Virus record (IMG/VR): IMGVR_UViG_3300035505_000313
Span: 11,501 to 75,500 of that record
Direction: 5' to 3' (one strand)
Origin: a virus
Taxonomy: Duplodnaviria > Caudoviricetes
DNA length: 64,000 nt
Under the pieces are notes generated by a model that was not told the origin of the DNA, made no database searches, and was given only the letters and a program-made list of their open reading frames with translations. Positions 6,367-46,895 of this stretch are shown piece by piece; the first letter of the stretch is position 1, and the number at the start of each line of letters is the position of its first letter. Position numbers and translations under genes: made by a program.

Positions 6367-7236
6367 ACCATTTGTCGTCATAAGTGTATTAATCTGATAC
6401 TGAATAGTCTGAACACCAGCTTTTAACTCAGATTTAGTTCTTTCAGCAACCAAATCTTCAAGCTCTTTTCCTGTATAACCCATTTCTTTATATACTTTAG
6501 TATACTTATCTTTAGAAATACGTAAGTACTTACCTAAGTGGCTTAGGTCTACAGACTGCCCACCATACTGATTAGAAGCCACAGCCGCAATTACCTGTGT
6601 AGTAACAGTACAAGCTACTTGGAAAGACTTAGGTGTCTCAATCATTTTTCCATTCATACATGTACCATTATCAAGGATATCTCCTATGTTAATAAGACAA
6701 CAGTTAAACATACCAAACTGTAAGAAGTAATCTTCATCATGGAAATGCAATACACCATCTTCATGTGCCTTAACAATTCTTTCAGGTAACAAAATTCTAT
6801 TAGTCATATCAATAGATGTAGCACCTGCAATGTAATCACGTTCTGTACTTAACAACATAGGATTCTTATTTGAATTCTCTGTGTTAGTATGGTAATCTTT
6901 ATGGTTAACTACATCAATCAATTTTTTATCTGTTGTATTCTTAATCAATCTGAGACTTTCATGTCTCTCTCGATATAAGATATATTTTTTAGCAAGCTGA
7001 AATTTATCCAATTTCATAAGTTCTACTTCCACTCTATCTTGAATTTCCTCAATACTTACAGTTGTAACTTCATTATCCTCTAAGTATTTTAAAATCCTTC
7101 CCTCAATTAAACGAATCTCCTCAATGGATGCTTTGTCAGCAATATCCTCAACATCCTTGTTAGCATTACTGATTGCATGAAAAATCTTTGATGCATCGAA
7201 TTCTACAATGTCACCATTACGTTTCTTAACGTGCAT
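6367..7236 (-). CDS. nrdD: NrdD exon 1 (ATP cone)
   Basis: VKKRNG...FDASKI ATP cone, HFHD...NCCLIN, QYGGQS. The spliced product is 732 aa. Confidence 0.93.
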
Positions 7237-24481: not shown

Positions 24482-24760
24482 ATGACAACTAATGAGAGTT
24501 TTGTAATTTATGTAGAACCTACTATAGTTGGCTGTAAATTATCCTTATCTGTACTTGAAAATAAAACTTACTCTAGTTGGGCGGTTAAAGACGCTTTTAA
24601 TGGCTTAACTAGAGAAGTTTCAATAGATGAAAGTATTGAAGGGTTCTTCACAGCAAATTCAATGGTAGACCTTTATATTTTTGATAATAACCATAAGAAT
24701 TCTATTATCAAGAATGTCAAAATCTTAGAGAAGAATGATGAGGTGAGTGAGAATGTATAA
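24482..24760 (+). CDS. Hypothetical protein in the structural operon
   Basis: 92 aa with RBS. Confidence 0.55.
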   Translation: MTTNESFVIYVEPTIVGCKLSLSVLENKTYSSWAVKDAFNGLTREVSIDESIEGFFTANSMVDLYIFDNNHKNSIIKNVKILEKNDEVSENV

Positions 24761-26297
24761 GAATAGTATGGATGGTGCAACCATTATGTTTATTGGTGAC
24801 ACTTATTGTAAAGCTTATAATATCTCTTACCTTAATGCAAACTACAATAAGATTATGTGTAATCTTCAAAGTGTTAAGAAGATTTATTATAAATGCAATG
24901 AATCCAGAAACAGTTGGATTAACTATAAGAAAGCATTAGTTAAAGAACAGAATAAGAATCTTTCTTATATTGAAAGAATCTTACGAGGTCTTAAGAATGA
25001 TTTCTTATCTGAAGAAGAGTTTCAGGATATGCCTGAATGTGAGTATACTGATTATTGTGGATTTACTTATACAATAGGTGCAAGAGATGGTTTAGATGAT
25101 GCTACATCTGTTAAACAACTTAAGCAGATTTATCAGAACAATATTCAGAAGAAGATTGAGTATGATGTTAATGAAGAATGTTATAGACTTACTGTTAACT
25201 TTAGAACTCCTATTGATGACAGTTTAGTTACATTCAATGGCTTATTTGAACCATTTGAAAGAATTAAGGATGCTAAGAAGACTACTATGATTGTCTATTA
25301 TGAAAGAGACGGTCTTGTATTCCCTAAAGATAGTGATGGAAACTATAAGGAAGATTGGTGTTATATCTTACCTTATGTTTGGAATGGTGTCACTATTGAT
25401 GAGGAATTCATCTATCCAATTAGGAGAGAAGATGAATGGTTAGTCTTCAATGAAGAAATTGATTCTAGTTATTTGATTGTATATAATAAGTGCTTATATC
25501 AATATGAAGTGAATAAGTATGATTCACATTACATTAAGATTGGTGGTGGCATTGATATCGGTAATTCTAACAACTTTAAGTTAGAAGATATCTATGCTAT
25601 TAAGCTTAGAAGTGAAGATGACCAGTTGATTAAGCAACAGAAGTTAATTGGCTTCTATAATGAACATGATGATACAGTATACTTCCCAGAAAGTATTGAA
25701 AATGCATTGATTACCTATAATGGTATTCATCATAGCTATATGATTAAGCCTAATAGGAAATCAATTAAGTTTAAGATTCCAGGTGACCTTGTATTAGATA
25801 CTATTACAGGTGTTGACGAAGAATCTCATATCATTGCAGTTAACTTGTATACTGGACCTTCTCCTGTAGCTGCAGTAGATTTCCCATCTTCAGATTTAGC
25901 TAGAGCTGCTAATCAGATGATTGATATCTATCGTAATAAGCTTAAGCAAGCTGAAGACAGAGTTACTGCATTGGAGAAGACTAGAGATTTGATTTATGAT
26001 GACTTTAATGAACAATTAGAGTTCTCTTATGATAATCCTACTACATTTACATTAAGTTATATTCCAGACCCTAAGTCTTTACGTTTGTATATTAATAATG
26101 TTGAGTATGAGAAAGATATTTACTTTACTTATGATGCAGACAATAAGTCTATTGAGTGGATATTTACTGAAATGAATGATGGTTTTGACTTATCTCCTGA
26201 AATGGAAATCAATGTTGTTTACGATTTGTACTATTCTGTGAATAATATAACAGATATAGATACATTTAAAGAATATATTGATTCTGTACAGTCATAA
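24747..26297 (+). CDS. Probable virion structural protein
   Basis: C-terminal LYINNVEY...IEWIFTEMNDGFDL...INVVY module is shared with 29089-30540. Confidence 0.5.
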   Translation: MRMYKNSMDGATIMFIGDTYCKAYNISYLNANYNKIMCNLQSVKKIYYKCNESRNSWINYKKALVKEQNKNLSYIERILRGLKNDFLSEEEFQDMPECEYTDYCGFTYTIGARDGLDDATSVKQLKQIYQNNIQKKIEYDVNEECYRLTVNFRTPIDDSLVTFNGLFEPFERIKDAKKTTMIVYYERDGLVFPKDSDGNYKEDWCYILPYVWNGVTIDEEFIYPIRREDEWLVFNEEIDSSYLIVYNKCLYQYEVNKYDSHYIKIGGGIDIGNSNNFKLEDIYAIKLRSEDDQLIKQQKLIGFYNEHDDTVYFPESIENALITYNGIHHSYMIKPNRKSIKFKIPGDLVLDTITGVDEESHIIAVNLYTGPSPVAAVDFPSSDLARAANQMIDIYRNKLKQAEDRVTALEKTRDLIYDDFNEQLEFSYDNPTTFTLSYIPDPKSLRLYINNVEYEKDIYFTYDADNKSIEWIFTEMNDGFDLSPEMEINVVYDLYYSVNNITDIDTFKEYIDSVQS

Positions 26298-26315: not shown

Positions 26316-26346
26316 TAGGCATAGGAAGTATTTCTTCCTATGCCTA
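26316..26346 (+). terminator. Intrinsic terminator
   Basis: 13 bp stem TAGGCATAGGAAG/CTTCCTATGCCTA followed by CTTTT. Confidence 0.7.
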
Positions 26347-27157: not shown

Positions 27158-29074
27158 ATGGGTGATTATGCTAAGGCATACCTTTTACGTAAAGGTACTG
27201 CAGAAGAACATAAAAAATTTACTGGTCTCCTTTCTGAGTTAACATTTGATACTACGAATAATAGACCAGTTGCTCACGATGGAAAAACCAAAGGTGGTTT
27301 TTCTCTCGCTTTATTGCAAGATATTATTGGATTAGCTTCAGAAGCATGGGTTAGTGAAAACTTTAGAAGTGCTAATGAGAAGATTTCCATTGATGATATC
27401 AGTGACGAATTAACTAGTATTCTTTCTTCTGAATATGATGATTCCGTACTTACTGCAACTATTGAGGAAATTAAAGCTCAAATGGTTACACAGGAAAGTC
27501 TTGGTAACTTTGTTACTAAAGAAGCTCTTGAAGGAATTACAGTATCTCAGTTGGATGCTAGTTTGCAAAGAAAGATTAATTCAATTATTGAGAATGGAGA
27601 ACTCCGTTTATCTAATATTGAAATGTCCTATTTAACTAAGGATGCGTTAAATAGTGTAATGAGTGGCTTCTTAACTGTTACATCTAAGATTGGTATTGGC
27701 AACTTAGATGACAGTATTGTTACTTTACTAAGTGAAGCACAGAGTAATACATCTAGTATTGGTGTGCTTAGTGCATCATTAGAAAGGCTTCAGCAAGAAG
27801 TTAATGATAGTGAGATAGGTGACTTCACTCAGCTTACTTCTAAGATAAATGAAATCGAGAGTAAGATTGAAAAGAACGCTCTTGTCTATGATGACACAGA
27901 GATTCGTAATAATCTTGAATCTCTTAGTAACATCGTAAATACAGCTAATGCTGCTATTGAAATCCTTAATAAAGAAGTTAAGGATAATGTTTATGATGAT
28001 ACTCCTATCAAAGACCAGATTAATGATATTTATGCTAAGCTTAATGATTTAGACTTAGGTGATTATGATGATTCAGCTTTACGTCTGTCTATTAATAATC
28101 TGTCTAAAGAAAATGAGACTATGGCTGCAAATATCAATACTTTGAATAATCAATATAAAAATCTTGTTACTAAGATTAGTGAAATCCAATCAAAGGGTTA
28201 TGATGATAGTGAGCTTAAAAAGAGCCTTGAAGACCTGACTAGTAATGTAGCAGACATCTTAAATGAATTAGATGGATACAATAGCAAGATTAGTACATTG
28301 GACTTCAATGTATCTGATATTACAGCTAGATTGAATTCTATTTCTTCTGACTATATTAACTTCTCTGCTTCTGTAGAATCTGCAGTTAATGAAGTTAGTA
28401 ACTTAGTTAAAGTAATTAATGGATTACAATCTACAGTAGATAATATGCAGCTTGAAATTACTTATCTTAAAGATGTAGTTAAACAGCTTCAAGATACAAC
28501 ATCACAACTGGTTGAAGCTGTGAATAATGGTAGTGATTCTAATATTGAACAGCCAGAATATCCTTCAGAACCTGTGATTCCTGAAGAACCAGATAATAGT
28601 GGTGAAGATAACAATGGAGGGGATACAGAAGTGCCTGACAATAATGACAATACTGTTACTGAACCAGAAATTCCATCTAGTCCGACAGATGGTTTAGATG
28701 CTGTGGGTATCTGGTCTAATAAGTATGGTGAAACAGCTAAAACTGTATATGAAGGATTAGTTACAAACTTCAGAGGAGGATTCCTTGCTCTTAGCAAGTT
28801 TGAAGGTTGTCCTATTACTGATGCTCAAACTCTTGAAGATATGTTCTATGATGGTGACAAGGTTGAATTATGGTGTCTTGGACCAACAGGTTCAACTGTC
28901 AGTGTTAATCCGTCATATGTTCCTACAGATGAAGAAGGTGACACTGAGTTTACAGAGAGTGTAAATGTAGGTAAATACTTCTACAATGCTGGATGGGATA
29001 GAGATACATCTAGATGGTCTATTGAGCCTGGACGTACAGTTGACTATACAATCAAGCTTGTTATCTATAGTTAA
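27158..29074 (+). CDS. Tail fibre protein with Mtd-like N-terminal domain and YDD(S/T) coiled-coil repeats
   Basis: LRKGTAEEH..FTG...ELTFDT......HDGKTKGG N-terminus; five YDD(S/T)xxx repeats; Pro/acidic linker and a C-terminal globular domain. Confidence 0.7.
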   Translation: MGDYAKAYLLRKGTAEEHKKFTGLLSELTFDTTNNRPVAHDGKTKGGFSLALLQDIIGLASEAWVSENFRSANEKISIDDISDELTSILSSEYDDSVLTATIEEIKAQMVTQESLGNFVTKEALEGITVSQLDASLQRKINSIIENGELRLSNIEMSYLTKDALNSVMSGFLTVTSKIGIGNLDDSIVTLLSEAQSNTSSIGVLSASLERLQQEVNDSEIGDFTQLTSKINEIESKIEKNALVYDDTEIRNNLESLSNIVNTANAAIEILNKEVKDNVYDDTPIKDQINDIYAKLNDLDLGDYDDSALRLSINNLSKENETMAANINTLNNQYKNLVTKISEIQSKGYDDSELKKSLEDLTSNVADILNELDGYNSKISTLDFNVSDITARLNSISSDYINFSASVESAVNEVSNLVKVINGLQSTVDNMQLEITYLKDVVKQLQDTTSQLVEAVNNGSDSNIEQPEYPSEPVIPEEPDNSGEDNNGGDTEVPDNNDNTVTEPEIPSSPTDGLDAVGIWSNKYGETAKTVYEGLVTNFRGGFLALSKFEGCPITDAQTLEDMFYDGDKVELWCLGPTGSTVSVNPSYVPTDEEGDTEFTESVNVGKYFYNAGWDRDTSRWSIEPGRTVDYTIKLVIYS

Positions 29075-29088
29075 AAATAAAAGGAGGA

Positions 29089-30540
29089 ATGAAAGTTATG
29101 GCTGAAGAATGTCTTTGCAATGTGGTAGCTTCTGGATATGGTTATAGTAGTACCTATGATACTGATGGAAGTTGCCTTTGTAATACAGTTCGTGTAAGAA
29201 AATATCTTTCTACATATGGTTCTTGTGAAAGTGGAGTTATTGCTGGTTATGGTGGTTGTGGTGTAGATACTAGTTCATATAGTAGCTATGGAACTACAAA
29301 TAGCAATAATTCTTCTAGCAACTCATATAGCTCATGTGATGGAACTGTTTGCTCATGCAATTCTAGAAGTAAATTAACTTCTTATGCAGATAGTATTTAT
29401 GGTTCTTGTGGCTATTGTACATGTGATTCTAGAACAGGAACTAAATATGTAGCAGATACAGTGTATGGTAGTTCAAGTTCTTCAGTAACTTGCTCATGCA
29501 ACTCTAGAGTAACGACTACTTATAGTTCATGCGATAACACAAACACTGATACAAATAGTTCTTATGGTTTATGTGGTGATTATAGTTCTTGTAGTAATAC
29601 AAGTTCTTCTTGTTCATGCAACTCTAGAGTAACAAATACAACATCTTCAGGAAGCTCTTATAGTTCTTGTGGGGATTATGGTTCATGTGGTGGTTCTTAT
29701 AGTTCTTATGGTTCTTGTGGAACATATGCTAGTTATACATCATGTGGAACACCTTGTGCATGTAATTCTAGAACTCTTAAAGGTTCTTCTAATACAGATT
29801 CAGAGGATGATAAGACAACTGATGTTGTTGATATTCCAGAAGGAAAGAATATTCCTGAATTGACTGAAACAGATATTGAAGATGTTCAATATAATACACT
29901 TTGGGATACTACTGAAAACAACTCTAAGCTTCCTGCTACTTCTTCAAATAGAACTAATAAAGCTCTTAAGACTTCAAATAAGAGAATAATTACTGCTATT
30001 AATGAATTAGTAACAAGTAATTCAAGCTTAGACAAGAAGATTGACGAGTTTAATGAACGCTTCAATCAAGTAATGGGTAATGAAGTTACTGACCCATCAC
30101 TTCTTACTGATGTAAATGAGTTAGGTGGAAGTGCTTTAGCAGCTATTACAGGTCTGTATAATCTTCTTAAAGAATATGATACAAATCTTACTAAAGCAAC
30201 ACATGATATGCAGTCACTTAAAGCTGAATTGACTGAGAAGATTGAAAGTCTTGAAAGTTCAATTAGCAATGGTGGTGTATCAACAACTTCTACTGCTAAT
30301 ACAATTACAGAACTCGTTACTGAAGATAGATTTAATGAAGCAGCTCAGATGATTACATTAGCAGCTATTCCTAAAGATAGTTCTAATGTTAAGCTTTTAG
30401 TAAATAATGTACAGTATTTTGCTGGTGTTGACTTTATTGTTGATGGTGATAGCATTTACTGGGCATTTACAGAAAATAATGGTGGATTTAATCTTAATCT
30501 TACTAACTACGACATTCATGTTATTTATGAAGTTGGTTAA
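29089..30540 (+). CDS. Chimeric protein: Cys-rich CxCNSR repeats plus a tail-fibre-type C-terminal domain
   Basis: N-half has CSCNSR/CTCDSR/YGSCG repeats. C-half has LKTSNKRIITAINEL and VNNVQYFAGVDF...NGGFNL. Confidence 0.7.
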   Translation: MKVMAEECLCNVVASGYGYSSTYDTDGSCLCNTVRVRKYLSTYGSCESGVIAGYGGCGVDTSSYSSYGTTNSNNSSSNSYSSCDGTVCSCNSRSKLTSYADSIYGSCGYCTCDSRTGTKYVADTVYGSSSSSVTCSCNSRVTTTYSSCDNTNTDTNSSYGLCGDYSSCSNTSSSCSCNSRVTNTTSSGSSYSSCGDYGSCGGSYSSYGSCGTYASYTSCGTPCACNSRTLKGSSNTDSEDDKTTDVVDIPEGKNIPELTETDIEDVQYNTLWDTTENNSKLPATSSNRTNKALKTSNKRIITAINELVTSNSSLDKKIDEFNERFNQVMGNEVTDPSLLTDVNELGGSALAAITGLYNLLKEYDTNLTKATHDMQSLKAELTEKIESLESSISNGGVSTTSTANTITELVTEDRFNEAAQMITLAAIPKDSSNVKLLVNNVQYFAGVDFIVDGDSIYWAFTENNGGFNLNLTNYDIHVIYEVG

Positions 30541-30584
30541 TAAAAATGGAGGATATGGTAGAAATACCATATCCTCTTATATTT

Positions 30585-33122: not shown

Positions 33123-33254
33123 AGTATAAGTCTCCTTTCTAAATAAAATAATAATCTTATAATTTATTGTTACAGGATAAGTAATACACCTAAAGGAACT
33201 TATGTCCTTTAGGTGTATAAAATATATCATATAAATAATAATATGAAGGCTAAT

Positions 33255-34154
33255 TTACTCAAGTCCAAGCTTTCTTAATCTCTCATGATGAGTGTTGTAA
33301 GCTCTTGAACGGATATCATAAATGATATTTGATGTCTCTGTCTCATTGTCACATCGATTAATGTCATATAGTCCATCTTGATGGGAAATGTCATCACCAG
33401 AACGTCCATAACTTTCAGCTACGACTTTACCAGAAGCATCACGAATATAACTTCTTACATCTTCTTTAGGTTTAACCCAGTTAAATAAATCAACACTGAT
33501 TGGCTCTTCAAATTCTCCATTACAGATTCTCTGAGAAAGCAAATCCATTTCATAGTTAAACCTCTCAATGTAAGGTGGAAGCAGAGGTACAACTGATTCT
33601 ACAGTACCAATACCAAACTCTCTAATACCTAACTTATAAAGGTCATCAATGCTTGAGTTAAGATAACCAATATTCCAAGGATGAGTGGTAATATGAACAC
33701 CTAAGTCATAAATACCTGCTTTATGTAAAGCTTCAATATTCCTAACTACAGTGTTATAAGTATTTGTACCAGTACCTTTGAATACTCTGAACATATTAGC
33801 TAATGGATGACCATCCATACTAATAGCAAAGTGCACTCTCTCTGTCTTAAGCATATCAATCAATTCGTTATTGATAATAGTTCCATTAGTGGTGATTGTG
33901 AAATCAACATCCAAGTTAGGATACTCATTAGTAACATATATTACTGTATTTCTAATGTTATCCCAAGCCATCATAGGCTCACCACCTAAGAACTCAATTC
34001 CGAATGAATCAGAAGTTCTAAACTTGATAATATTATCTAAAGTCTCTTTAACTTCTTCCCAAGTGTATGTGCTTGTCTTATCTTGTTCATAGCAGTATTT
34101 ACAAGCACAATTACATGCTTTAGTAACATGTAAAACATATGTTTCTCTTGCCAT
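33255..34154 (-). CDS. Radical SAM enzyme (anSME-like core, no SPASM domain)
   Basis: CNCACKYC, FLGGEP, ITTNGT, ISMDG. Confidence 0.88.
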   Translation of the reverse strand: MARETYVLHVTKACNCACKYCYEQDKTSTYTWEEVKETLDNIIKFRTSDSFGIEFLGGEPMMAWDNIRNTVIYVTNEYPNLDVDFTITTNGTIINNELIDMLKTERVHFAISMDGHPLANMFRVFKGTGTNTYNTVVRNIEALHKAGIYDLGVHITTHPWNIGYLNSSIDDLYKLGIREFGIGTVESVVPLLPPYIERFNYEMDLLSQRICNGEFEEPISVDLFNWVKPKEDVRSYIRDASGKVVAESYGRSGDDISHQDGLYDINRCDNETETSNIIYDIRSRAYNTHHERLRKLGLE

Positions 34155-34165
34155 AGTAAATCCTC

Positions 34166-35395
34166 CTAATCTTCTACAGTTGAATGGTGACCAGCAACAT
34201 TAACTACGTTACAGTTCTCATACTCATCCTTAATAGGCTGTAGATTTTCATCAATAAGACCAGCTTCAACTAATCTGTCTTTTACCCAATGCTGAACATC
34301 ACGCTCAACATGTGACATCATACAACGTTCTCTCCTAATAGTCTGGAAGAGATTCTGATGTCTTCCCCAGTTATCAGCAATACATCTATAACAATGGAAG
34401 CAATCACAAGTAGGATTCTCTGTTGCACAAGACATATCAGAACCATCATAATCATTGTATAACAAATCCTTCATTTCATCAATACCATCATCCAGATTAC
34501 CAATAATAGTATAGTTGTCTGGGTCATTATAATAAATTTGATGACAAGGTGAAATCAAACCTGATGCAGTAATTGATACGAAGTTCTTACCTGCACCACA
34601 CGGAGCACCAAAACCATTGATACACATAAGTGTTTTATCAATCGGTGCATAAGAATAAATGTACTGTAAATCACGTTCTTCGATAGCTTTATTTACAAGC
34701 ACTTCAGCAATCTTAATTAACTGCTCTTTGTAACTTCTTACACTTTCAATAGTATATCCATTATCAGAATGGATAGGCATAAACCAAATCCAAGGACATT
34801 TCCATTCCTCTACAAAGAACTTATAATTCTCAAACAGATACATCATGTTATCAGAAGTCAAACAAGAGTGAAGACACAATCTATTATTGAACGTACCCTC
34901 TTCTCCAAGGATTCTCTGCCAGAACTTTACACCCTCGGCAACCTTATCAAATGTACCTTTACCATCAATGGTAACACGATTCTGGTCATGACACTCCTTA
35001 ATACCATCAACAGAAATCTGTACATTGATATGACATAAATCCTTATACTTTGTAAACAGTTCCTCATACTTATCATTGAAGATAGTACCATTTGTAATAA
35101 TAGTTACTACAAATACAATACCAGTTTCCTCATCAAGCTGATGACCTATTTCAAATGCTTTTTTCATACCCTCATAATTTAATAAAGGCTCTCCACCAAA
35201 TGCTGTGATTGATACACAATCGTCACCAGTAATCTGAGCATTTTTATATAAAAAGCGAATAGCCTTTTCAACTGTCTCAACTGACATGTTCTGATTATGG
35301 TGAGCACCCAGTTCGAAACAGTACTTACAGCGTAAATTACATTGTTCGGACAAGAGTAAACTTGCCGCTGTTGGATAACAACTCATAACCAACAT
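34166..35395 (-). CDS. Radical SAM/SPASM peptide-maturase-like enzyme
   Basis: CNLRCKYC, FGGEPLL, ITNGT, QISVDG; SPASM CGAG...ISPCHQ...CDCFHCYRC...C. Confidence 0.9.
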   Translation of the reverse strand: MLVMSCYPTAASLLLSEQCNLRCKYCFELGAHHNQNMSVETVEKAIRFLYKNAQITGDDCVSITAFGGEPLLNYEGMKKAFEIGHQLDEETGIVFVVTIITNGTIFNDKYEELFTKYKDLCHINVQISVDGIKECHDQNRVTIDGKGTFDKVAEGVKFWQRILGEEGTFNNRLCLHSCLTSDNMMYLFENYKFFVEEWKCPWIWFMPIHSDNGYTIESVRSYKEQLIKIAEVLVNKAIEERDLQYIYSYAPIDKTLMCINGFGAPCGAGKNFVSITASGLISPCHQIYYNDPDNYTIIGNLDDGIDEMKDLLYNDYDGSDMSCATENPTCDCFHCYRCIADNWGRHQNLFQTIRRERCMMSHVERDVQHWVKDRLVEAGLIDENLQPIKDEYENCNVVNVAGHHSTVED

Positions 35396-35400
35396 CCTCC

Positions 35401-36378
35401 TTACTCAATAATTCCTAAATTTTTATAGGTCTTCTTGAACCCTGGACCATAGTCCCAATCATCACAAAGACCTTCAACAGTTGCCCAGTCGAACAAGATT
35501 TCTTGGTCATCATTATGACGACATCTTTCAACTGCAGAACTGCAATCCATAACGGAAAAGCTATACTTTTTGTCAAGTACTTCTTCCATGATATCATAAA
35601 CCATACCATCATCATAAAGATGATAATAGAAATCCTTAAATGCACGATACTTGTTATCAGCATAGTACTTCATAATAGCATCACGATTTCCGGGACTTAT
35701 CTGTACTTCTACAAGGTCAAGATGCTTTCCTCCTACACTATCCAGAATAGGAAGCATTTCGAATAACTTATCTCTATGTAAAGACCATGAAGGTTCTTCA
35801 ACAGTGATTCGGAATCCCATGTTAGCAGCCTTTTCCATGTTATTATAAACCTGTTTAGAGAAGAATGAAGCTGAAACATGGAAACGAAGTTCCTCAACTC
35901 TCATCTCTTTCATTCTCTTAAGATTCTCCTCATTACACAGAATACCATTTGTATATACAAAGTAGTAATGGTTAATACCATTACGGTCTCCAATATCATT
36001 CAGAATCAAAGCAAATTTCTCTAACTCATCAAGGTAAGCTACTGTCTCACCTGCGGACTGATAAGAAAAGATTGTAGGCTTGAAATTCTGAAGATTCTGT
36101 GACATAAAGAACCAATCAGCAAGCTTGCTGTTAATGGAATCCATTGTTTCCTCACCTCTATTAATATCATAATAGCAATAAGGACAGTTACACATACATT
36201 TAGTTCCAATCTGAACTCCTGAACCTTGTTCTCCAGTAAAACATTTACGACATCCTGGAGATATCTTTCCAATATGGAAAGCATGACCATTAGCGTGCAT
36301 TTCAGCACCTTTCTTGAGAAGCTCTTGCTGTCTAGCAAACTTCTCCAACTGAATCTCCTGATAAGGTACAACTCGCAT
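35401..36378 (-). CDS. Radical SAM enzyme, COG2108-like (PFL-activase-related)
   Basis: GKISPGCRKC...GTKCMCNCPYC, YTNG, ELRFH. Likely start MRVVPY at 36378 after AAGGAGG. Confidence 0.75.
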   Translation of the reverse strand: MRVVPYQEIQLEKFARQQELLKKGAEMHANGHAFHIGKISPGCRKCFTGEQGSGVQIGTKCMCNCPYCYYDINRGEETMDSINSKLADWFFMSQNLQNFKPTIFSYQSAGETVAYLDELEKFALILNDIGDRNGINHYYFVYTNGILCNEENLKRMKEMRVEELRFHVSASFFSKQVYNNMEKAANMGFRITVEEPSWSLHRDKLFEMLPILDSVGGKHLDLVEVQISPGNRDAIMKYYADNKYRAFKDFYYHLYDDGMVYDIMEEVLDKKYSFSVMDCSSAVERCRHNDDQEILFDWATVEGLCDDWDYGPGFKKTYKNLGIIE

Positions 36379-36406
36379 AATAAAATCCTCCTTCATATTA
36401 TTTTTC

Positions 36407-37294
36407 TTAATATACAAAATTGCACTTTTTGAATAACTCTTGTAAAAAAGGGTCATATTTGATTATACGCAAATTTTCTTCTCGGTAATCATTAGTCCAA
36501 GCATTATCTGGACTCTGCTTCTCACAAGCAACCCCTCCAAAGTGGAAGAAATAAGGATTCCAATTAACTCCTTGTTTACCAAGATAATCTGCAGTAGAAT
36601 AATAAATTTTTCTTCTCAATATTTCATTAAAAAAGTATGTTCCGCTATCATAACATCCATACAAGTATCTAGAATATTTATCGTTTACTTCTTTGCTTTC
36701 AATATTATCAAAGTATAAATGTTCTTTGTCTATAAGTAATTGAATGTCCATAAAAGCTAATCCCATCCAAATTCTTTTATGATAAACTTTATCATTATAT
36801 CTTTCTAATGTTAAAGGGCATATATCAGGATTATTGCTATTAAAAATATCATCATAGTTATGATTTGGAATAGAAAATATTGTTTTATCTAATATACCAA
36901 TAATATTAGCTTTTTTATGTATTACTTCTTTGAACATTATTTTTAGTGTTGCTTGACTTTTGATAATAATGTCACCATCTAAGAATAAAGCATACATAAC
37001 ATTATTTTTATGTGCATATAAGAAACATTCATTGTAAATCTTATTTACTCTAACGGTAATATTCTTTTCATCATTACTAAACCTTGACCATGTTATAACT
37101 TTATAACCTTTACTTTCCGCCCAAGCTTTAGTATCATCTGTAGAATCATCATCAAAAATAACTATGTTATCTTTAAACATAGGATAAAATGTTAGTACAG
37201 ATTCACTAGCAAGCTCAAGATATGGTCTTATATTCTTACCAGAAATAAAAATATAAAAACCTCCTAATTCTTTTAATTCTCTTATATAATCCAT
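36407..37294 (-). CDS. Divergent GT-A (GT2-like) glycosyltransferase
   Basis: IVIFDDDSTDDT, LFLDGDII (DxD), YDSGT, FFHFGG. Confidence 0.7.
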   Translation of the reverse strand: MDYIRELKELGGFYIFISGKNIRPYLELASESVLTFYPMFKDNIVIFDDDSTDDTKAWAESKGYKVITWSRFSNDEKNITVRVNKIYNECFLYAHKNNVMYALFLDGDIIIKSQATLKIMFKEVIHKKANIIGILDKTIFSIPNHNYDDIFNSNNPDICPLTLERYNDKVYHKRIWMGLAFMDIQLLIDKEHLYFDNIESKEVNDKYSRYLYGCYDSGTYFFNEILRRKIYYSTADYLGKQGVNWNPYFFHFGGVACEKQSPDNAWTNDYREENLRIIKYDPFLQELFKKCNFVY

Positions 37295-39210: not shown

Positions 39211-39537
39211 TTATTTACAAGCAGAGCTTACAACTTTGTTAGAGCTTCCACAACCACTATATGTAGGTGTGCTACAAGCAGAAGAAGTTACCTTATTAGA
39301 ACTTCCACAAGAACCATAAGTAGCTGTAGATGGTTTAACTGTACCACATGAAGATGTAGTAGACTTAGAAGTAGAATTCTTAGTCTCTACTACCTTAGTA
39401 TCTACAGTCATACCACACTGACCATAAGTAATAGTAGTTGTCTGAACCAGCTTCTTGAGGTTCTTAGAGTTACATGCTGAATAGGTTGATTCTGGAACTT
39501 TTACGTTCTTCTGTCCATACTTATAAAACTTAGCCAT
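39211..39537 (-). CDS. Short Ser/Thr/Cys-rich protein (precursor-peptide-like)
   Basis: Start MAKFYKYG after AAGGAGG. Repeats YGSCGSSNKVTSSAC and YSGCGSSNKVVSSAC. Confidence 0.7.
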   Translation of the reverse strand: MAKFYKYGQKNVKVPESTYSACNSKNLKKLVQTTTITYGQCGMTVDTKVVETKNSTSKSTTSSCGTVKPSTATYGSCGSSNKVTSSACSTPTYSGCGSSNKVVSSACK

Positions 39538-39559
39538 AATGTTTTCCTCCTTAAATCTT

Positions 39560-41155
39560 TTAATTATCATATGGTGCATACATATCTACAACATTGCAAG
39601 AACATACATCATTACATGCACAAGTTGTTCTAGTTTCACATAAGGGAACTGAACGAGAATTACATCCACATGTAGTAAAGCTTGTTCTATCTACACAATC
39701 ACAGCTTTGACTAGAAGCAGTACGTGATACACAACTATAATCAGTTGAGTAAACTGTTCTAGCTTCACATATTGTATCTAATGCAGTAGTTGTACGCACA
39801 TTACATGTACAATCTACAGCTTGTGTTGTACGTGCAAGGCATACTTTATCAGCAGCATAAGCTGTCCTTGATGCACAATCCGAACTGTATTCTATATAGT
39901 TTGTTGACGTTCTTGATGTACAAACTGACTTTTGGGTTGTTCTACTATTACAAGTACATATTTCTTTGTAGTCAAAAACTTGGTCATTTTTGTCTATATT
40001 ACAACTGCAAGAAACTCCTATATATGCTGTAACTGATACCCTAGATATACAAGTATAATATGAGTAAGTACGTGAATTACAAGTGCAATTAGCTCCACTA
40101 TCAGAGCAAGCAGAATAACTTCCAGAATATCCTGAAGCTATTTTTACAGCATTACATGTACAAGCAAATATACTATCAGAAGTATTTACTGAATTACAGT
40201 CACATGCTGGAACATATTGAGTTGTAGTTCTAGCTGGACATACACTATTATTTGAATTTGTACGTGTGTCACATAAGCAACAACTATTATATTGCTTAAA
40301 ACTAAGTGTATCACTATAACCAACAGTATTACAAAAACAAGCTGGTTTTACTGCAGATGTACCTACAGTATTACATTTACATGAAGCACCTACTCCATAA
40401 TCAACTGAAGTCCTAGTATTACATTCACATGATTCTGAGTAAGTAGTTCTAGATACACAATCGCATACATCTAAAACCTTACCATCTTTGTCAGGTGCTA
40501 TTCTAGAAAAACATGTACAAGTTGTTCCATAAGTAATATCTTTCTTAGGTTCTTGAACTATACTAACTCTTGAACCACATAATATAGCATCTTCATGGTC
40601 ATTTGCTGTTCTAGAATCACAATCACAAGTTACTACACCTAAATCAATATATCCTGCTGTTCTAGAATCACATACACAAGTTATTCCATACACATTAGGA
40701 GAGTACTCAGAAGTTCTAGAATTACACATACAAGCTTCATCAGCATGAATTCTAGAATTACATTCGCAACTTGCATAATAATAAGTCCTTGCTTGACAGA
40801 TAGGAGTAGAATATGGTTTCTCAACTTCTTCACATTCCAAAGTTCTAGAATTACATTCACAAGTGGATGTATTATAAGTAACTATAGTTGTTCTAGACCC
40901 ACATATCATTGTGGTATTTGGTATAAAGTTTGTGACTTCTTTTAAATCTGCTGGTGTCTTTTCCATTACATGATGAATATGACCATTACAATCAGCTCTA
41001 TCAATAGCTTCTCTACGATTATTCATATCTTGTACTAGATTCTTAAGCTGATTTAAAGAACCACGAAAGTTAGCAAAAGGGTCATAACCACGAAGCTTAA
41101 CCATTTCTTCATGTATATCACCTAATGATATTTCTTTTTTATTCCATTCAGACAT
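39560..41155 (-). CDS. CxCxxR repeat protein with shared N-terminal domain
   Basis: 531 aa with many CxC(N/D)(S/T)RT motifs after SLGDIH...SLNQLK...CNGH. Confidence 0.85.
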   Translation of the reverse strand: MSEWNKKEISLGDIHEEMVKLRGYDPFANFRGSLNQLKNLVQDMNNRREAIDRADCNGHIHHVMEKTPADLKEVTNFIPNTTMICGSRTTIVTYNTSTCECNSRTLECEEVEKPYSTPICQARTYYYASCECNSRIHADEACMCNSRTSEYSPNVYGITCVCDSRTAGYIDLGVVTCDCDSRTANDHEDAILCGSRVSIVQEPKKDITYGTTCTCFSRIAPDKDGKVLDVCDCVSRTTYSESCECNTRTSVDYGVGASCKCNTVGTSAVKPACFCNTVGYSDTLSFKQYNSCCLCDTRTNSNNSVCPARTTTQYVPACDCNSVNTSDSIFACTCNAVKIASGYSGSYSACSDSGANCTCNSRTYSYYTCISRVSVTAYIGVSCSCNIDKNDQVFDYKEICTCNSRTTQKSVCTSRTSTNYIEYSSDCASRTAYAADKVCLARTTQAVDCTCNVRTTTALDTICEARTVYSTDYSCVSRTASSQSCDCVDRTSFTTCGCNSRSVPLCETRTTCACNDVCSCNVVDMYAPYDN

Positions 41156-41170
41156 ATATTCTTCTCCTTT

Positions 41171-42148
41171 CTATTTATTAAATATACTAACTCCACCATC
41201 ACAAGTGCATACTGATTGGCAAGCACATGATACTCTAGATTCACATTCGGAAGTTGAACGAGAATTACAATAACAACCAAAGTTAGTAGTTCTATCAACA
41301 CAGCTACATGAGAATACTTTAGTTACTCTAGAGTTACAAGCACAATCCGTTATTCTTGCAGTTCTATTATTACACTCACAAGATTCTGTTGCTGTACTTC
41401 TAGAATTACATGAACATGTTACAACTGTTCTATTCTCGCAACTACATCCAACATAAGTTAAAATCTCATCAGCATTACATTCACAGCCTTTAGGAGCTTC
41501 TTTATCTATTTGTATTCTTGAATCACAAGTACATACTTCGACTAACTCTGACGGACAGTCGGAGTTAGGATATTTTACATAAGATGTAACACTATCCATA
41601 GTGTTAGTTACTCTTGATTGACAGGTAATTATAGGTGTATATGTATAACCACTTCTGTCATTACATAAACAATCACTTTCATTACCATATATAGAATCAT
41701 CTCTATAAGTAGTTCTAGCTAAACAAGTTACATCAGGAACATAATTAGTCCTAGATGAACAAACAGTATCAACGCTATATGTAGTCCTAGAGCTACATAT
41801 AGCGGATACTTGTGGATTTGTTACTTTATCACACGTTAAAGTTCTAGTGTGACATTCACATGTAATATTATTATTGCAATCACATGTGTATAACTGTTCA
41901 GAAGAACAGAGAGATTTTATATTTGGTAGTCTTTTAAATACTGTGTTAGTATTTACTTCATTTCCGTAATTTTCTACTGGCATTGAAAAGTCAGTATGTT
42001 CAGGACAATAACTTTCATTTCTTACTTCATTCATAGAATTAAGCATTTCTTTTAGCTCATTCAAAGAATCGTATTCTTCAGTTTTATATCCACCCTTACT
42101 TTTCAATCCACCATGTAAATCACCTAATGAATCTCTATAATCAGCCAT
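41171..42148 (-). CDS. CxCxxR repeat protein with shared N-terminal domain
   Basis: 325 aa; SLGDLH...SLNELK...CPEH, then repeats. Confidence 0.85.
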   Translation of the reverse strand: MADYRDSLGDLHGGLKSKGGYKTEEYDSLNELKEMLNSMNEVRNESYCPEHTDFSMPVENYGNEVNTNTVFKRLPNIKSLCSSEQLYTCDCNNNITCECHTRTLTCDKVTNPQVSAICSSRTTYSVDTVCSSRTNYVPDVTCLARTTYRDDSIYGNESDCLCNDRSGYTYTPIITCQSRVTNTMDSVTSYVKYPNSDCPSELVEVCTCDSRIQIDKEAPKGCECNADEILTYVGCSCENRTVVTCSCNSRSTATESCECNNRTARITDCACNSRVTKVFSCSCVDRTTNFGCYCNSRSTSECESRVSCACQSVCTCDGGVSIFNK

Positions 42149-42170
42149 ATATAAAACCTCCTATGAATTA

Positions 42171-43853
42171 TTATTCATATTTAATTACTTGGTTACAGCT
42201 ACATATATTTGACATACTAGCTGTACGTGATGGACACAATGAACCAGTTCTTGTATTACAACCACATGATGTAGCGATTGTTCTAGAAGCACAATCGGTA
42301 ACAACATTAGTTCTTGTATTACAAGTACAATTTGCAGTATATACAGAATCATACACTCTATCTGGTTCATCAACTGACCCCATCTCAATCTTATTATAAG
42401 TACCTTGTGTTCTTTCAACACAATCACAAATACTAGTTGAAGCTACACGACTAGCACAAATGTCTGAATAAACATAAGCAGTATTAGCTGTTCTGTTTAC
42501 ACAAGGACAATCTGCTACAGATGTAGCTACCGTTCTTACATTACATATACAATCCACTTTAGCAGTTGTTCTAGATGCACATGTTACTTGAGTTAAGTTA
42601 ACTGTATGAGAACTACAACCACCATCACATGTTCCATAACCAGTACCACATACACTATAATAACTAGTACCACAAGAGGATATATAACCGAATGTATCAC
42701 ATTCTGAATAATAAGAAGAAGCCATACTATCATTACCTCCATTTAAACTTTGATTACTACTACATACACTATAGACCACTGTATCAGTGTTACTATTATA
42801 GTAAGCAAAACTACCACCACCATATAGTTCAACGTAACTATCTGATACTGGTACTACGTTTGAAGGACAACTATAAGTAGTCCTTGCATCACACAAACAA
42901 TTATCATTTGTGCTTTCATATATTGTATCACTTCCACCATAAGCGATATTCTTTGTACAATCAACAGTTGCTACTGTATTGCAAGAACAGCCAGTTCTTC
43001 CATTACATATACAAGTAGTATCTGTTTTATTATATGAATAATCAGGAACAGTTATCTTATCAGAAGTATAACCAGTTCTTGAATTACATACACAAGTAGT
43101 TCTAGAATTACATGAACACATTTCACATGCACTGTAATCCACAACACTGTCATTAACTTTATCACTATCAACTGTTGTTCCTACCCTTGAACCACATACT
43201 GTTTTTGTTCTAGAGTTACATGAACAATCTCCACATCCACTAGTTAACCAGTCAATAGCATAATCACTAGTTGTAGAATAAGTTACCCTTGAACCACATA
43301 CTGTTTTTGTTCTAGAGTTACATGAGCAATCTCCACATCCACTAGTTAACCAGTCAATAGCATATTCACTAGTTGCAGAAGTTCCAGCTCTTGAACCACA
43401 TACTGTTTTTGTTCTAGAGTTACATGAACATGTTCCACATCCACTAGTCAAATAATCTGCAGCATATGTGTTACTAACTGAATAAGTTACCCTTGAACCA
43501 CATACTGTTTTTGTTCTAGAGTTACATGAACATGTTCCACATCCACTAGTCAAATAATCTGCAGTATAAGCCTTAGAAGCTGTAGTTCCAGTTCTTGAAC
43601 TACAATCTACAGCTGTTCTAGATGAACATACAGAAGCTGCAGATGTTGATGTTTCAGTAGTTGTTCTAGATACACATGCACAAACATAATCTCTAGAGTA
43701 AGAACCACCTACATAGCTTGATGTATAAGCACCACCAACATAAGTTGTATAATAAGCACTACCTACATAATTAGTAGTATAAGCACCACCAACATACACT
43801 GATGTATAAGTATTTCCATATGTAGCGGTATAATAACTTGCATAAGAACCCAT
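42171..43853 (-). CDS. CxCxxR repeat protein with Tyr/Gly N-terminal repeats
   Basis: 560 aa. Four YVG(G/S)(A/S)Y 9-mers, then four 34-aa (102 nt) repeats. Confidence 0.85.
   Translation of the reverse strand: MGSYASYYTATYGNTYTSVYVGGAYTTNYVGSAYYTTYVGGAYTSSYVGGSYSRDYVCACVSRTTTETSTSAASVCSSRTAVDCSSRTGTTASKAYTADYLTSGCGTCSCNSRTKTVCGSRVTYSVSNTYAADYLTSGCGTCSCNSRTKTVCGSRAGTSATSEYAIDWLTSGCGDCSCNSRTKTVCGSRVTYSTTSDYAIDWLTSGCGDCSCNSRTKTVCGSRVGTTVDSDKVNDSVVDYSACEMCSCNSRTTCVCNSRTGYTSDKITVPDYSYNKTDTTCICNGRTGCSCNTVATVDCTKNIAYGGSDTIYESTNDNCLCDARTTYSCPSNVVPVSDSYVELYGGGSFAYYNSNTDTVVYSVCSSNQSLNGGNDSMASSYYSECDTFGYISSCGTSYYSVCGTGYGTCDGGCSSHTVNLTQVTCASRTTAKVDCICNVRTVATSVADCPCVNRTANTAYVYSDICASRVASTSICDCVERTQGTYNKIEMGSVDEPDRVYDSVYTANCTCNTRTNVVTDCASRTIATSCGCNTRTGSLCPSRTASMSNICSCNQVIKYE
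43185..43590 (-). repeat. Coding tandem repeat, 4 x 102 nt
   Basis: ACCACATACTGTTTTTGTTCTAGAGTTACA recurs at 43191, 43293, 43395 and 43497. Confidence 0.9.
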
Positions 43854-43867
43854 TAATCACACACCTC

Positions 43868-45019
43868 CTAACATCCACCATAACAAGCAGAGGAACTTGA
43901 AGAATATGTGTTAGTATTGCAATAACAATCAGTTCTAGAATTACATGAACATACACTATTACAAGAGCAAGCAGCATTACATGTACAAACACTTTCACAT
44001 GTGCAACAAGCAGAAGTACTTGTTCTACCATTACAACTACAAGTAGTGCTGTAATTAGTTCTTCCATGACAACTGCAAGATGTTACTGAACTTGTTCTAC
44101 CATTACAACTACAAGAATAAGTAGTACTTGTTCTACCATTACAATCACATACACTTCTTGAACCACATTGAACTGTAGCTGATGTGTATGAATAAGATGT
44201 AGTTCTTGATTCACAAGTACAACCATAACAAGCTGAATAAGTAGTATCTGTATAATTATAAGTTCTAGAATTACAAGAACAAGCAGTTCTAGCATTACAA
44301 GAGCATCCTGTGTCTGTATCATAATAAGTTTTATCAGAAGCATAATCTGCTGTTACAGTAGATGTTGTTCTGGAATTACAAGAACAGGTTGTTCTAGAAT
44401 TACAAGTACATTTAGTATCTTCACTATAATATGACTTATCAGCAGTATATAATGTGTCACCATAATTATATGTCCTAGCATTACATGTACAAGTTGTTCT
44501 GGAATTACAAGTACATTTAGTATCTTCACTATAATATGATTTATCTGATGTGTAATCTGCTGTTACATTAGATGTTGTTCGACTACCGCATACAGTAAGT
44601 GTTCTAGAATTACAAGAACATTTAGTATCTGTATCATAATATGAATTATCAGCAGTATATAATACATCACTAGTACCTTTTGTTCTAGTATTACATGAAC
44701 AAGCAGTTCTAGAATCACATGTACAAATTGAATTTCCATATACATCATCAAAATAAAAATCTCCACATGAAGAACTATAAGCTGAACGTGATGCACAAGC
44801 AACCCCAGTTCTAGAATTACATGAACACTCTCCACAACCACTAGTATAAAAATCTTCTGTATAAGTACTTGAATTTGTATAAGTAGTTCTAGCTGTACAT
44901 ACAATAGATGTTCTAGTATTACAAGTACATTTAGTACCTACACCATAAGAATAATCTGATACTTTATCACCTTGACTTATTGCATAAGTAGTACGTGAAT
45001 TACATACACAATATGACAT
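43868..45019 (-). CDS. CxCxxR repeat protein
   Basis: 383 aa beginning directly at a motif (MSYCVCNSRT); four D(K/N)(S/T)YYxxDT(K/G)C units. Confidence 0.85.
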   Translation of the reverse strand: MSYCVCNSRTTYAISQGDKVSDYSYGVGTKCTCNTRTSIVCTARTTYTNSSTYTEDFYTSGCGECSCNSRTGVACASRSAYSSSCGDFYFDDVYGNSICTCDSRTACSCNTRTKGTSDVLYTADNSYYDTDTKCSCNSRTLTVCGSRTTSNVTADYTSDKSYYSEDTKCTCNSRTTCTCNARTYNYGDTLYTADKSYYSEDTKCTCNSRTTCSCNSRTTSTVTADYASDKTYYDTDTGCSCNARTACSCNSRTYNYTDTTYSACYGCTCESRTTSYSYTSATVQCGSRSVCDCNGRTSTTYSCSCNGRTSSVTSCSCHGRTNYSTTCSCNGRTSTSACCTCESVCTCNAACSCNSVCSCNSRTDCYCNTNTYSSSSSACYGGC

Positions 45020-45049
45020 AATATTCCTCCTTTCATTTAGTATTATATT

Positions 45050-45080
45050 ATGTGGTAAACAAGAATCTTGTTTACCACAT
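45050..45080. terminator. Hairpin between Cys-repeat genes
   Basis: ATGTGGTAAACAAGA/TCTTGTTTACCACAT inverted repeat. Confidence 0.6.
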
Positions 45081-45090
45081 AATCTTAAAT

Positions 45091-45591
45091 CTATCTAGCA
45101 GAGCCATAAAGCCTTACATTGCAATCGCATGATACCCCACATTCTGAATAAACATCAGTTGTTCTAGCATCACAATCGCATGTTCCGCCACATGCTGTAT
45201 AAACATAATTACTTCTAGTATTACATGAACAAGCATCACCACATGCAGTATATGCTGTTGATGTTCTTACATTACAAGTACAACTTGCTGCATAAGTACA
45301 AGCTGAGTAACCTCCAGTTCTTGAATGGCAGTCACAACCTGTTTGGCACATAGTATAAGCATAAGTTCTACTAGCACATAAAGTAGCATCACCACCACAA
45401 TGCGTATAATAAGCAGTTCTATTATTACATGAACATACTTGTTGTACGGAAGTTCTAACATTACAAGAACATTCAACAGTTGTTGCTGTCCTTGATTCAC
45501 AAGTACAACTTACGCCACCTCTAGAAACACATGAACATGAGGCGTAACTTCCAGTAGCATAAGCAGTTCTACCATTACAACTACAAGACAT
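45091..45591 (-). CDS. CxCxxR repeat protein
   Basis: 166 aa with 27 Cys and ten CxCxxR motifs (counted by hand). Confidence 0.85.
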   Translation of the reverse strand: MSCSCNGRTAYATGSYASCSCVSRGGVSCTCESRTATTVECSCNVRTSVQQVCSCNNRTAYYTHCGGDATLCASRTYAYTMCQTGCDCHSRTGGYSACTYAASCTCNVRTSTAYTACGDACSCNTRSNYVYTACGGTCDCDARTTDVYSECGVSCDCNVRLYGSAR

Positions 45592-45606
45592 ATTATCACC
45601 CCCTTC

Positions 45607-46779
45607 TTAACAAGCACTACTACAACTGCTATCTGCAACTAAAGAAACACAATCGCTATATGAATAAGTATAATAAGAAGTTCTAGACTTACAATCACAA
45701 CCAGATGTATAAACATTACCCAAACAGCATGAAGCATAACCTGTTCTTGATGCACAATCTGCACCAACATATTGATTTACATTGCCACTACAATCTGCAT
45801 AAGCAACAGTTGTTTTTGTTTCTGTTCGGGAAACACAACTACATTCTTTCTTTGTTGCACTAACTACATTAGTTCTAGTTTGACATAAAGACACTGCAAC
45901 ATAAGTTTTAGTTTCAGCTAAATTATCTTTACATACGCAACCAGTCCAATATGCTGTGGTATTCTTATCTCTAGATTCACAAGCACAACCTTCATAACAA
46001 GCTGAGTATACATATTCAGCTCTTGAATTACAACTACAACCAGTATATGTAAATGTAATTTGTGAAGTTCTTGATTCGCATAAACATGAATATGTTGTAG
46101 GAGTATTAACTACATCAGATGTTGTTGTATAAGTGGTTCTATTTTCACAATCACATGTACTATTAGCATAAGTTGTACCTGTTCTTGTGTTACAATCACA
46201 GGCTGGAGTTTCAGTACCATTTAAGTTTGCTACTGTATTACAACTACAGTTGTAATCAGTTGTCTGTCTTGTATTACAACTACATACTGTAGTTTGTGTA
46301 TCTTTAGTTGATACTGTATTACAAGTACAGCCATACCCAGTACCTACACTTGTTCTAGTATCACATTTACAAACTGAATTAGTAGTATCACTATAAAGTG
46401 AATCACTTTTATTTATATAAGTAGTATCAACTTTAATCCCCGATACTTCAGAACACTCAGAAATTCTAACATCACAAGCACAAATATTATCATCAACTTT
46501 TTGGTCATAAGTAGACACTAACTTCTTAGTTCCAGCTTTTTGCAAGGACTTATTTATATCCATCAAACTAAGATTAGCTGAAGTCAAACTAAAGTCTTGA
46601 TGAGAAGCACATTGCACTGGTAAACCATCTACAATATCAACAGTCTGAGAACGTGTTTTATTCATACTGTTTACCAAATTTCTTAACTGATTAAGAGATT
46701 TGTATTTATCAGTATCTATTTCAAAACCTTGCTTAAGTTCAGCTTCTTGATGAAGTTCATTTAATGAATTTCTACTCAT
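45607..46779 (-). CDS. CxCxxR repeat protein with shared N-terminal domain
   Basis: 390 aa; SLNELH...SLNQLR...CASH, then repeats. Confidence 0.85.
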   Translation of the reverse strand: MSRNSLNELHQEAELKQGFEIDTDKYKSLNQLRNLVNSMNKTRSQTVDIVDGLPVQCASHQDFSLTSANLSLMDINKSLQKAGTKKLVSTYDQKVDDNICACDVRISECSEVSGIKVDTTYINKSDSLYSDTTNSVCKCDTRTSVGTGYGCTCNTVSTKDTQTTVCSCNTRQTTDYNCSCNTVANLNGTETPACDCNTRTGTTYANSTCDCENRTTYTTTSDVVNTPTTYSCLCESRTSQITFTYTGCSCNSRAEYVYSACYEGCACESRDKNTTAYWTGCVCKDNLAETKTYVAVSLCQTRTNVVSATKKECSCVSRTETKTTVAYADCSGNVNQYVGADCASRTGYASCCLGNVYTSGCDCKSRTSYYTYSYSDCVSLVADSSCSSAC

Positions 46780-46849
46780 AAGGTAGACCTCCTTTCAGAA
46801 AATATAATATTATTAATATAATGAATAGTTCTTATTATATAAAATGAAT

Positions 46850-46882
46850 ATGAGATATACTAGATAAACTAGTATATCTCAT
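46850..46882. terminator. Hairpin downstream of 46896-49043
   Basis: ATGAGATATACTAG/CTAGTATATCTCAT inverted repeat. Confidence 0.6.
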
Positions 46883-46895
46883 ATTTTTTATTTAT

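Follow-up and report, generated by a model that had tools for sequence, protein, structure and literature searches.

The protein considered here is encoded by the open reading frame (ORF) 29089-30540, a plus-strand gene in a stretch of 64,000 nucleotides (the window) that covers bases 11501-75500 of the 75.5-kb viral metagenome record IMGVR_UViG_3300035505_000313 (CheckV completeness ~31%). It is a chimera, in which a complete member of a phage protein family that belongs to the tail-fibre apparatus appears to have acquired a leaderless cysteine-repeat array of ~235 residues as an N-terminal graft, joined to it by an acidic linker. We think, with a probability of roughly 55%, that the protein is attached to the tail or to a fibre by its family part, and that enzymes of the phage staple the N-terminal array into a rigid, reduction-resistant module. 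According to this proposal, the family part would oligomerise through its long helix and dock on the tail or on another fibre, whereby the array would be carried on the particle. The C-x-C-[N/D] units of the array would be the substrates of PapB-like radical S-adenosylmethionine (SAM)/SPASM enzymes that the phage encodes 2.7 kb away. These would form thioether staples from cysteine to an acceptor residue, resulting in a surface module that would be rigid, reduction-proof and protease-resistant, and that is possibly glycosylated as well.

The back part is a complete member of a tail-fibre family

The last ~226 residues of the chimeric protein (hereafter the target) form a complete member of an unnamed phage family of ~220 residues, which consists of a head domain, a long helix and a beta-sandwich. 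A HMMER search with residues 236-483 against 1.84 billion representative proteins matched 71 proteins, i.e. the target and 70 relatives, and most of these are stand-alone proteins of 200-250 residues that align end to end with the last ~226 residues of the target (alignment A1). The identity to the ~220-residue relatives (P0002-P0022 and others) is 21-37% over the full length (24-40% in the HMMER table), all ten invariant columns of the alignment are present in the target, and the family profile matches it at an E value of 1.6e-65. The target also possesses the head motif of the family, Q-x-D/N-x-L-W ... N-K-x-L-x-T-x-x-K-x-I-I-x-A-I-N-E, and the long central helix that is followed by a beta-sandwich with N-G-x-x-Y ... 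W-x-F-T ... G-G-F-D/N-L. The segment LKTSNKRIITAINEL, which had been singled out in the original prediction, a first reading of this DNA made from the letters alone, belongs to this conserved family domain.

There are two family traits that the target does not share, as nearly all other members start at the head domain without an N-terminal extension and all of those found are poor in cysteine. Nearly all relatives begin 3-19 residues ahead of Q-Y-D-x-L-W, whereas the target alone is matched far from its N-terminus (233-480). It alone has a cysteine-repeat extension, of 255 residues, and it is the sole Cys-rich protein among the 71 matches, with a family median of 0.25% Cys. Among the matches from the 1.84 billion representative proteins, the fusion of the repeats to this family was found in the target only. 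Word-indexed protein searches with the N-terminal array, the C-terminal half and the family alignment retrieved nothing beyond the target itself or two members already known, a scan for related loci gave none with the single sequence and only three with the alignment, and the family profile detected nothing but coiled-coil noise among the PDB sequences.

The first ~105 residues of the family are also found as the N-terminus of long proteins of 400-2800 residues. Such proteins comprise P0065 with Phage_fiber_2 repeats (E 1e-19), P0053 with collagen repeats (E 1.4e-19), P0033 with collagen repeats and many tail-fibre PHROGs, and P0024, the middle of which matches minor tail proteins of cultured phages. 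On three viral contigs (L003-L005), the head domain occurs on genes in fibre clusters, beside Mtd_N-type fibres. As the head starts long fibres, sits in fibre clusters and has Mtd_N-type neighbours, the family can be assigned to the tail-fibre apparatus. This modular fibre family, with a head domain that starts long tail fibres, has not been described before. One of the three contigs carries two successive genes (L003:8388-10954, 528 and 324 residues) that both have head-domain N-termini and are followed by Mtd_N-type fibres, which suggests that a phage can use the head as a common means of attachment for more than one of its fibres.

The C-terminal helix and beta-sandwich form a shared module

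The original prediction had recognized the C-terminal module of the target also at the end of ORF 24747-26297, and this is borne out by 38% identity over 79 residues (E 3e-10). With the family profile, the ~100 residues at the end of that ORF give an E value of 2.3e-22, and the end of a 517-residue ORF in another large phage (G003) is matched as well. Because of these two matches, helix and sandwich can be regarded as a module that is common to different proteins. The C-terminal beta-sandwich that these two proteins of the target phage share has not been described before. Two strong two-way hairpins are present in this region (26316-26346 and 30548-30577), each of them directly 3' of an ORF that ends in the helix and beta-sandwich module.

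An AlphaFold2 model that was computed from a 56-sequence alignment has a mean predicted local distance difference test score (pLDDT) of 92.4 and consists of a helical head, one helix of 46 residues and a beta-sandwich of 80 residues (pLDDT ~97). In a Foldseek search of the PDB, the best matches of the sandwich were N-terminal domains of CBA120 TSP4 and the N-terminus of T7 gp17 (E 2e-3, probability 1.0), and in BFVD, which holds predicted viral structures, they were mostly N-terminal domains of tailspikes or T7-type fibres (2-3 Å over ~80 residues). VIA-align 2, which is independent of Foldseek, aligned the sandwich with the neck of DT57C (Z 7.7), the tail/fibre assembly of Carin1 (Z 7.6) and CBA120 TSP4 (Z 7.2 and 6.8), and almost every beta-domain match among its top 30 is a part of a phage neck, tail or baseplate. 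The program warns that a Z below 8 can reflect a common arrangement; as all values stay under this advised level, we read the domain as a beta-sandwich of virion type and not as proven homology. No clear match was obtained for the fold of the helical head in the VIA search, which barely tested the head part. The scores in a protein atlas were all below 0.9 and represent leads only, including a weak Phage_T7_tail lead at 0.77.

The sandwich can be compared with the N-terminal anchor of gp17 in T7 and with the XD domains of TSP4 in CBA120. In their own phages, such domains attach fibres or spikes to the tail or link them with one another. The target has a similar small beta-sandwich (Z 6.5-7.2, 2.4-2.9 Å over 64-65 residues), but its domain is C-terminal whereas theirs are N-terminal, there is no match to Pfam PF03906 (Phage_T7_tail), and with Z values below 8 homology is not established. 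Judged by the model, the C-terminal domain is possibly a docking domain of the virion type, and no non-structural family was matched by it.

The front part is an array of cysteine repeats

All 25 cysteines of the ORF are located within residues 1-235, where they amount to 10.6% of the residues. The array contains two CLCNxV units (positions 8 and 29) and five CxC[N/D]SR units (positions 88, 110, 135, 175 and 223; three times CSCNSR, once CTCDSR and once CACNSR), and ten Y[G/S]xC units are interspersed among these C-x-C units. An asparagine or aspartate is found three residues past the first cysteine in all seven C-x-C units, and an arginine at +5 in five of them. In 20,000 composition-preserving shuffles of the N-terminal part, five CxCxxR motifs were never reached, the highest number being 3.

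Within the window, the motifs of the array are confined to the target and to minus-strand ORFs at 39211-49043, which are 8.7-18.5 kb away. CSCNSR and YGSCG repeats like those of genes at a distance of 10-20 kb had been noted before, and the motifs are indeed shared. In BLASTP, the N-terminal part matches these paralogues at E ~1e-5, with the leaderless 43868 and 42171 as best matches. At the DNA level, the similarity between the array and the minus-strand genes is 71-79% across just 50-110 nt, and a recent duplication of the array is ruled out by this low similarity.

Arrays are also found in other phages. Viral contigs were scanned at the DNA level for a pattern of two adjacent CxCNSRT units; a second scan with a TGC-start variant of the pattern resulted in chance matches only. 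G002, a complete 183-kb phage with terminal repeats, possesses two adjacent phrog_877 paralogues, of which the downstream one has no array and the other carries an inserted array (Table 1). The array protein of G002 sits behind baseplate-wedge, tail and virion-structural genes, and its front part is homologous to the product of a gene that comes after baseplate J in Listeria phage LP-048, where it is annotated as 'putative tail protein', and in other Herelleviridae. The same phage encodes a radical-SAM pair and a leader-type repeat protein ~30 kb away. In G003, a 99-kb fragment, a 2036-residue protein contains an array at residues 1125-1276 that matches the target array, YGxC units included, at E 7e-11, and this protein lies 4 kb from a 1638-residue protein with many tail-fibre PHROG matches. 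Three smaller phages (L006, L007 and L018) have a minimal cassette of radical-SAM enzyme, repeat protein and radical-SAM enzyme. It is possible, if somewhat short of an even bet, that a portable cassette, stapled by phage radical-SAM enzymes, became joined to unrelated tail proteins on no fewer than three separate occasions, namely in the target phage, G002 and G003.

Candidate enzymes for a modification of the array

The minus-strand unit of the window is transcribed from the genes of the repeat proteins through those of two GT2 glycosyltransferases and of three radical-SAM enzymes to that of an 881-residue protein, and it converges on ORF 29089-30540 at a shared terminator. Two of these radical-SAM enzymes most resemble PapB and further peptide maturases that form thioethers; their best-scoring family is PapB (NF047865), with 156.5 and 104.8 bits versus a cut-off of 340 (E 1e-45 and 5e-30), and the three radical-SAM enzymes score 46.8, 69.8 and 21.1 bits with TIGR04463, the cut-off of which is 525. 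Phage repeat proteins that are encoded beside PapB-like radical-SAM genes are marked by a region rich in Cys, Ser, Thr and Tyr with several C-x-C-[N/D]-x-R units, and the target has such a region too. An N-terminal helical leader that ends in C-x-x-H is found in four of the seven paralogues and also in L018 and G002. The idea that the leader of the four paralogues corresponds to the head of the fibre family was rejected at a profile-profile probability of 0.2.

A precedent for the stapling of a large protein comes from the archaeon Methanococcus voltae, in which CrpC installs thioethers (ranthionine) on the 29-kDa protein CrpA at C-X-X-Q/D, with the cysteine before the acceptor (2026, PMC13692751). 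The invariant C-x-C-[N/D] of the target fits this pattern. Like CrpA, the target is a large protein with repeated cysteine motifs and an acceptor three positions past the cysteine, and it is likewise encoded near a radical-SAM/SPASM enzyme. The two systems differ in that CrpA/CrpC belong to an archaeal cell, where they may have a part in the handling of metals, whereas the target is a phage fibre-type fusion. CrpA has a 47-residue leader while the target has none, and CrpC is a member of TIGR04463, which the phage enzymes match weakly (47-70 bits versus 525). Repeated Cys-acceptor motifs are furthermore shared with PapB/PapA (freyrasin) and other ranthipeptide systems, from which the best-scoring family for two of the enzymes comes. 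The precursors of ranthipeptides, however, are short secreted peptides with leaders, whereas the candidate substrate here is a leaderless 480-residue protein of a phage tail block. Our literature search revealed no publication that deals with cysteine-repeat proteins of phage virions or with a radical-SAM maturation of such proteins.

The gene and its genomic context

A GGAGG at 29083-29087 lies 1 nt ahead of ATG 29089 and 10 nt ahead of ATG 29098. As it is too near the first of these codons and well spaced for the second, the product probably has 480 residues, and the 480-residue form is also the database representative (P0001). The ORF has a strong ribosome-binding site and is the final gene ahead of a terminator, a 13-bp hairpin that begins 7 nt past its stop codon. 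A comparison of promoters was uninformative for the upstream regions. An in-frame TTG (Leu253), preceded by a weak GAAGGAAAG, is present at 29860-29862 and thus approximately at the point at which the stand-alone relatives begin. Initiation at this internal codon, which would yield a repeat-free short form, is conceivable but unsupported.

The DNA originates from an uncultured low-GC (~31%) giant phage that encodes a multisubunit RNA polymerase beta subunit (phrog_2987). The product of 19912-20856 is 34% identical to the virion structural protein gp280 of Bacillus phage AR9/PBS1, and in AR9 gp280 is followed by the virion and tail proteins gp279-gp275. The gp280 homologue opens a plus-strand block of large genes, and ORF 29089-30540 closes it. 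The gene immediately upstream, 27158-29074, matches PF18454 (Mtd_N) with 29.6 bits versus a cut-off of 26.3 and also the tail protein phrog_9648, in agreement with the earlier description of the target gene as directly following a tail fibre on the plus strand. A tblastn search with ORF 20871-24464 and ORF 24747-26297 gave no match in cultured phages.

The interpretation given in the original prediction is supported in part. Its central claim, that the repeat family is virion-associated, is strengthened by the fusion to a fibre-type protein in a block of tail and virion genes, by the long tail fibres that begin with the family's head domain, by the fold matches of the C-terminal domain to phage neck, tail and fibre-anchor parts, and by the arrays in tail- or baseplate-region proteins of other phages; as regards the particle itself, we infer the presence of the protein in the virion from homology and gene context, and its modification and orientation are inferred as well.

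Alternative explanations

Several observations speak against a stapled array that is mounted on the tail. The target starts straight at the repeats without a helical leader, and it lies outside the radical-SAM operon, namely in a convergent unit on the opposite strand, with 2.7 kb between it and the closest of the radical-SAM genes. Every curated family cut-off is far above the scores of the radical-SAM enzymes, and the fold matches of the sandwich are modest (all Z below 8, range 6.5-7.7). None of the members of the fibre family has been characterised, and neither Pfam nor PHROGs contains a model for it. The target itself had no match in Pfam, PHROGs and NCBIfam, and tblastn of its C-terminal half and of the family member P0012 gave no match in cultured phages. 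Finally, a small gene right after a fibre gene occupies the usual position of a chaperone gene.

The missing leader and the location outside the enzyme operon are in favour of an array that is an unmodified zinc, iron-sulfur or disulfide domain, in which case the activity of the enzymes would be restricted to those proteins of their own operon that possess a leader. Metals are commonly bound by CxC pairs. A metal-binding role was also considered for CrpA by the authors of that study (PMC13692751). On the other hand, the leader is absent from three of the seven clustered paralogues too, and the N/D in 7/7 units together with the recurring arginine at +5 is more in keeping with an acceptor motif than with a site for metal binding. 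Furthermore, an embedded or grafted array co-occurs with a radical-SAM pair in both genomes that could be checked in this respect (G000 and G002). We thus regard an unmodified metal-binding or disulfide domain as unlikely.

The original prediction had suggested that the protein anchors the cysteine-repeat proteins to the particle, which means that the array would bind or cross-link the free repeat proteins and tether them to the tail, with the target acting as an adaptor. It is in line with such a role that no other repeat protein of the window contains a part recognisable as fibre-type, that the target's repeat units are shared with leaderless paralogues, and that the C-terminal module occurs on two proteins, as would be expected of a shared docking module. 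While the results are compatible with anchoring, none of them points to a contact between arrays. In G002 and G003 the arrays lie inside large tail-region proteins, for which an adaptor is not needed, and the leader of the four paralogues is unrelated to the fibre family. An adaptor role therefore appears quite unlikely to us.

An even less probable view, for which we see little room, is that the ~220-residue family represents non-structural assembly factors, that is, fibre chaperones that help to fold or mature the fibres or the repeat proteins and then leave the particle. Besides the gene position, this would suit the small size of the family members, none of which is functionally characterised. 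However, the head domain is the N-terminus of structural fibres (with collagen, Phage_fiber_2 or tail-fibre PHROG regions), the beta-sandwich resembles virion parts, and the target matched none of the known fibre-assembly chaperone families in Pfam, PHROGs or NCBIfam. An artefact, such as an ORF that was joined by misassembly or by a frameshift, or a low-complexity stretch that arose by chance, can practically be dismissed, as nothing was found in its favour, the identical fused protein is present on seven or more contigs that come from two independent sources of assemblies and therefore is no misassembly, the frame is uninterrupted and has a ribosome-binding site and a terminator, and none of the shuffles reached the observed motif count.

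Coordinates and neighbouring genes

The features of the window that are relevant to the chimeric protein are compiled in Table 1, together with the array-bearing protein of G002.

Table 1. Positions of the chimeric gene, its parts and associated features (window coordinates unless a contig is named).
Feature	Position	Strand	Remarks
Chimeric ORF	29089..30540	+	483 residues from ATG 29089; likely true start ATG 29098 (480 residues)
Cysteine-repeat array, residues 1-235	29089..29793	+	no helical leader; 25 Cys, seven C-x-C-[N/D], ten Y[G/S]xC
Acidic Thr-rich linker, residues 236-259	29794..29865	+	family relatives begin inside this stretch (alignment A1)
Family head domain, residues ~260-345	29866..30123	+	helical; motifs VQYNTLW and NKALKTSNKRIITAINEL; model pLDDT 91-97
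Single long helix, residues 349-394	30133..30270	+	probably coiled coil
C-terminal beta-sandwich, residues 401-483	30289..30537	+	motif LxNNVQY...YWAFTENNGGFNL; pLDDT 96-98
Second copy of helix and beta-sandwich	25917..26234	+	C-terminus of ORF 24747-26297, the last gene before terminator 26316-26346
Tail-fibre-type gene upstream	27158..29074	+	Mtd_N N-terminus, long coiled coil; stop codon 14 nt ahead of ORF 29089-30540
Two-way terminator hairpin	30548..30577	.	between the chimeric ORF and the convergent gene for the 881-residue protein
881-residue ORF	30585-33230	-	last gene of the repeat/glycosyltransferase/radical-SAM unit
Three radical-SAM genes	33255..36456	-	ORFs 33255-34154, 34166-35395 and 35401-36456; two PapB-like peptide maturases below all family cut-offs; candidate modifiers of the array
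Eight Cys-rich ORFs	39211..49043	-	seven with CxCxxR units, one small YG[S/Q]CG peptide
G002 array-bearing phrog_877 protein	L042:10245-15425		1727 residues, ~12 CSCNxRTx units inserted at residues 981-1074

The 881-residue protein at the end of the minus-strand unit contains three internal repeats of a ~100-residue domain (...PDFV...LGE...W/FD...IYV.N.G). A segment of 66 residues is 48% identical (E 1.7e-12) to the C-terminus of a PHROG-supported tail fibre of G003, so that the enzyme cluster is transcriptionally joined to a fibre-like gene. Beyond the repeat cluster, the plus strand carries another radical-SAM gene, the fourth, and genes for two further glycosyltransferases of the GT2 type (51168-52247 and 54002-55979).

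At some distance from these genes, an anaerobic ribonucleotide reductase (NrdD-like) is apparently split across several ORFs on the minus strand (3338-7236). The ATP-cone N-terminus is found at 6364-7236 and the C-terminus with CxxC pairs and RRTCGYLG at 3338-4261, and an ORF that resembles GIY-YIG-type endonucleases (4311-5204) lies between the NrdD-like pieces. The split gene may be due to the insertion of an intron or a homing endonuclease.

Implications

Thioether stapling by radical-SAM enzymes is known for small secreted peptides, and for one archaeal protein only since 2026 (PMC13692751). As a gene fusion of natural origin, the chimera connects the cysteine-repeat family with the tail apparatus, and at the same time it offers a compact leaderless test substrate of ~235 residues with seven motifs. 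If a portable array has indeed been grafted onto tail proteins and is stapled there, no structural proteins of a virion would have been known before them to mature through the radical chemistry typical of peptides that are made by the ribosome and modified afterwards (RiPPs), and the chimera would be the simplest construct for a proof. If phages staple their own tails, this would constitute a new class of virion maturation, and the stapling could affect the stability of the particle in the gut as well as host recognition.

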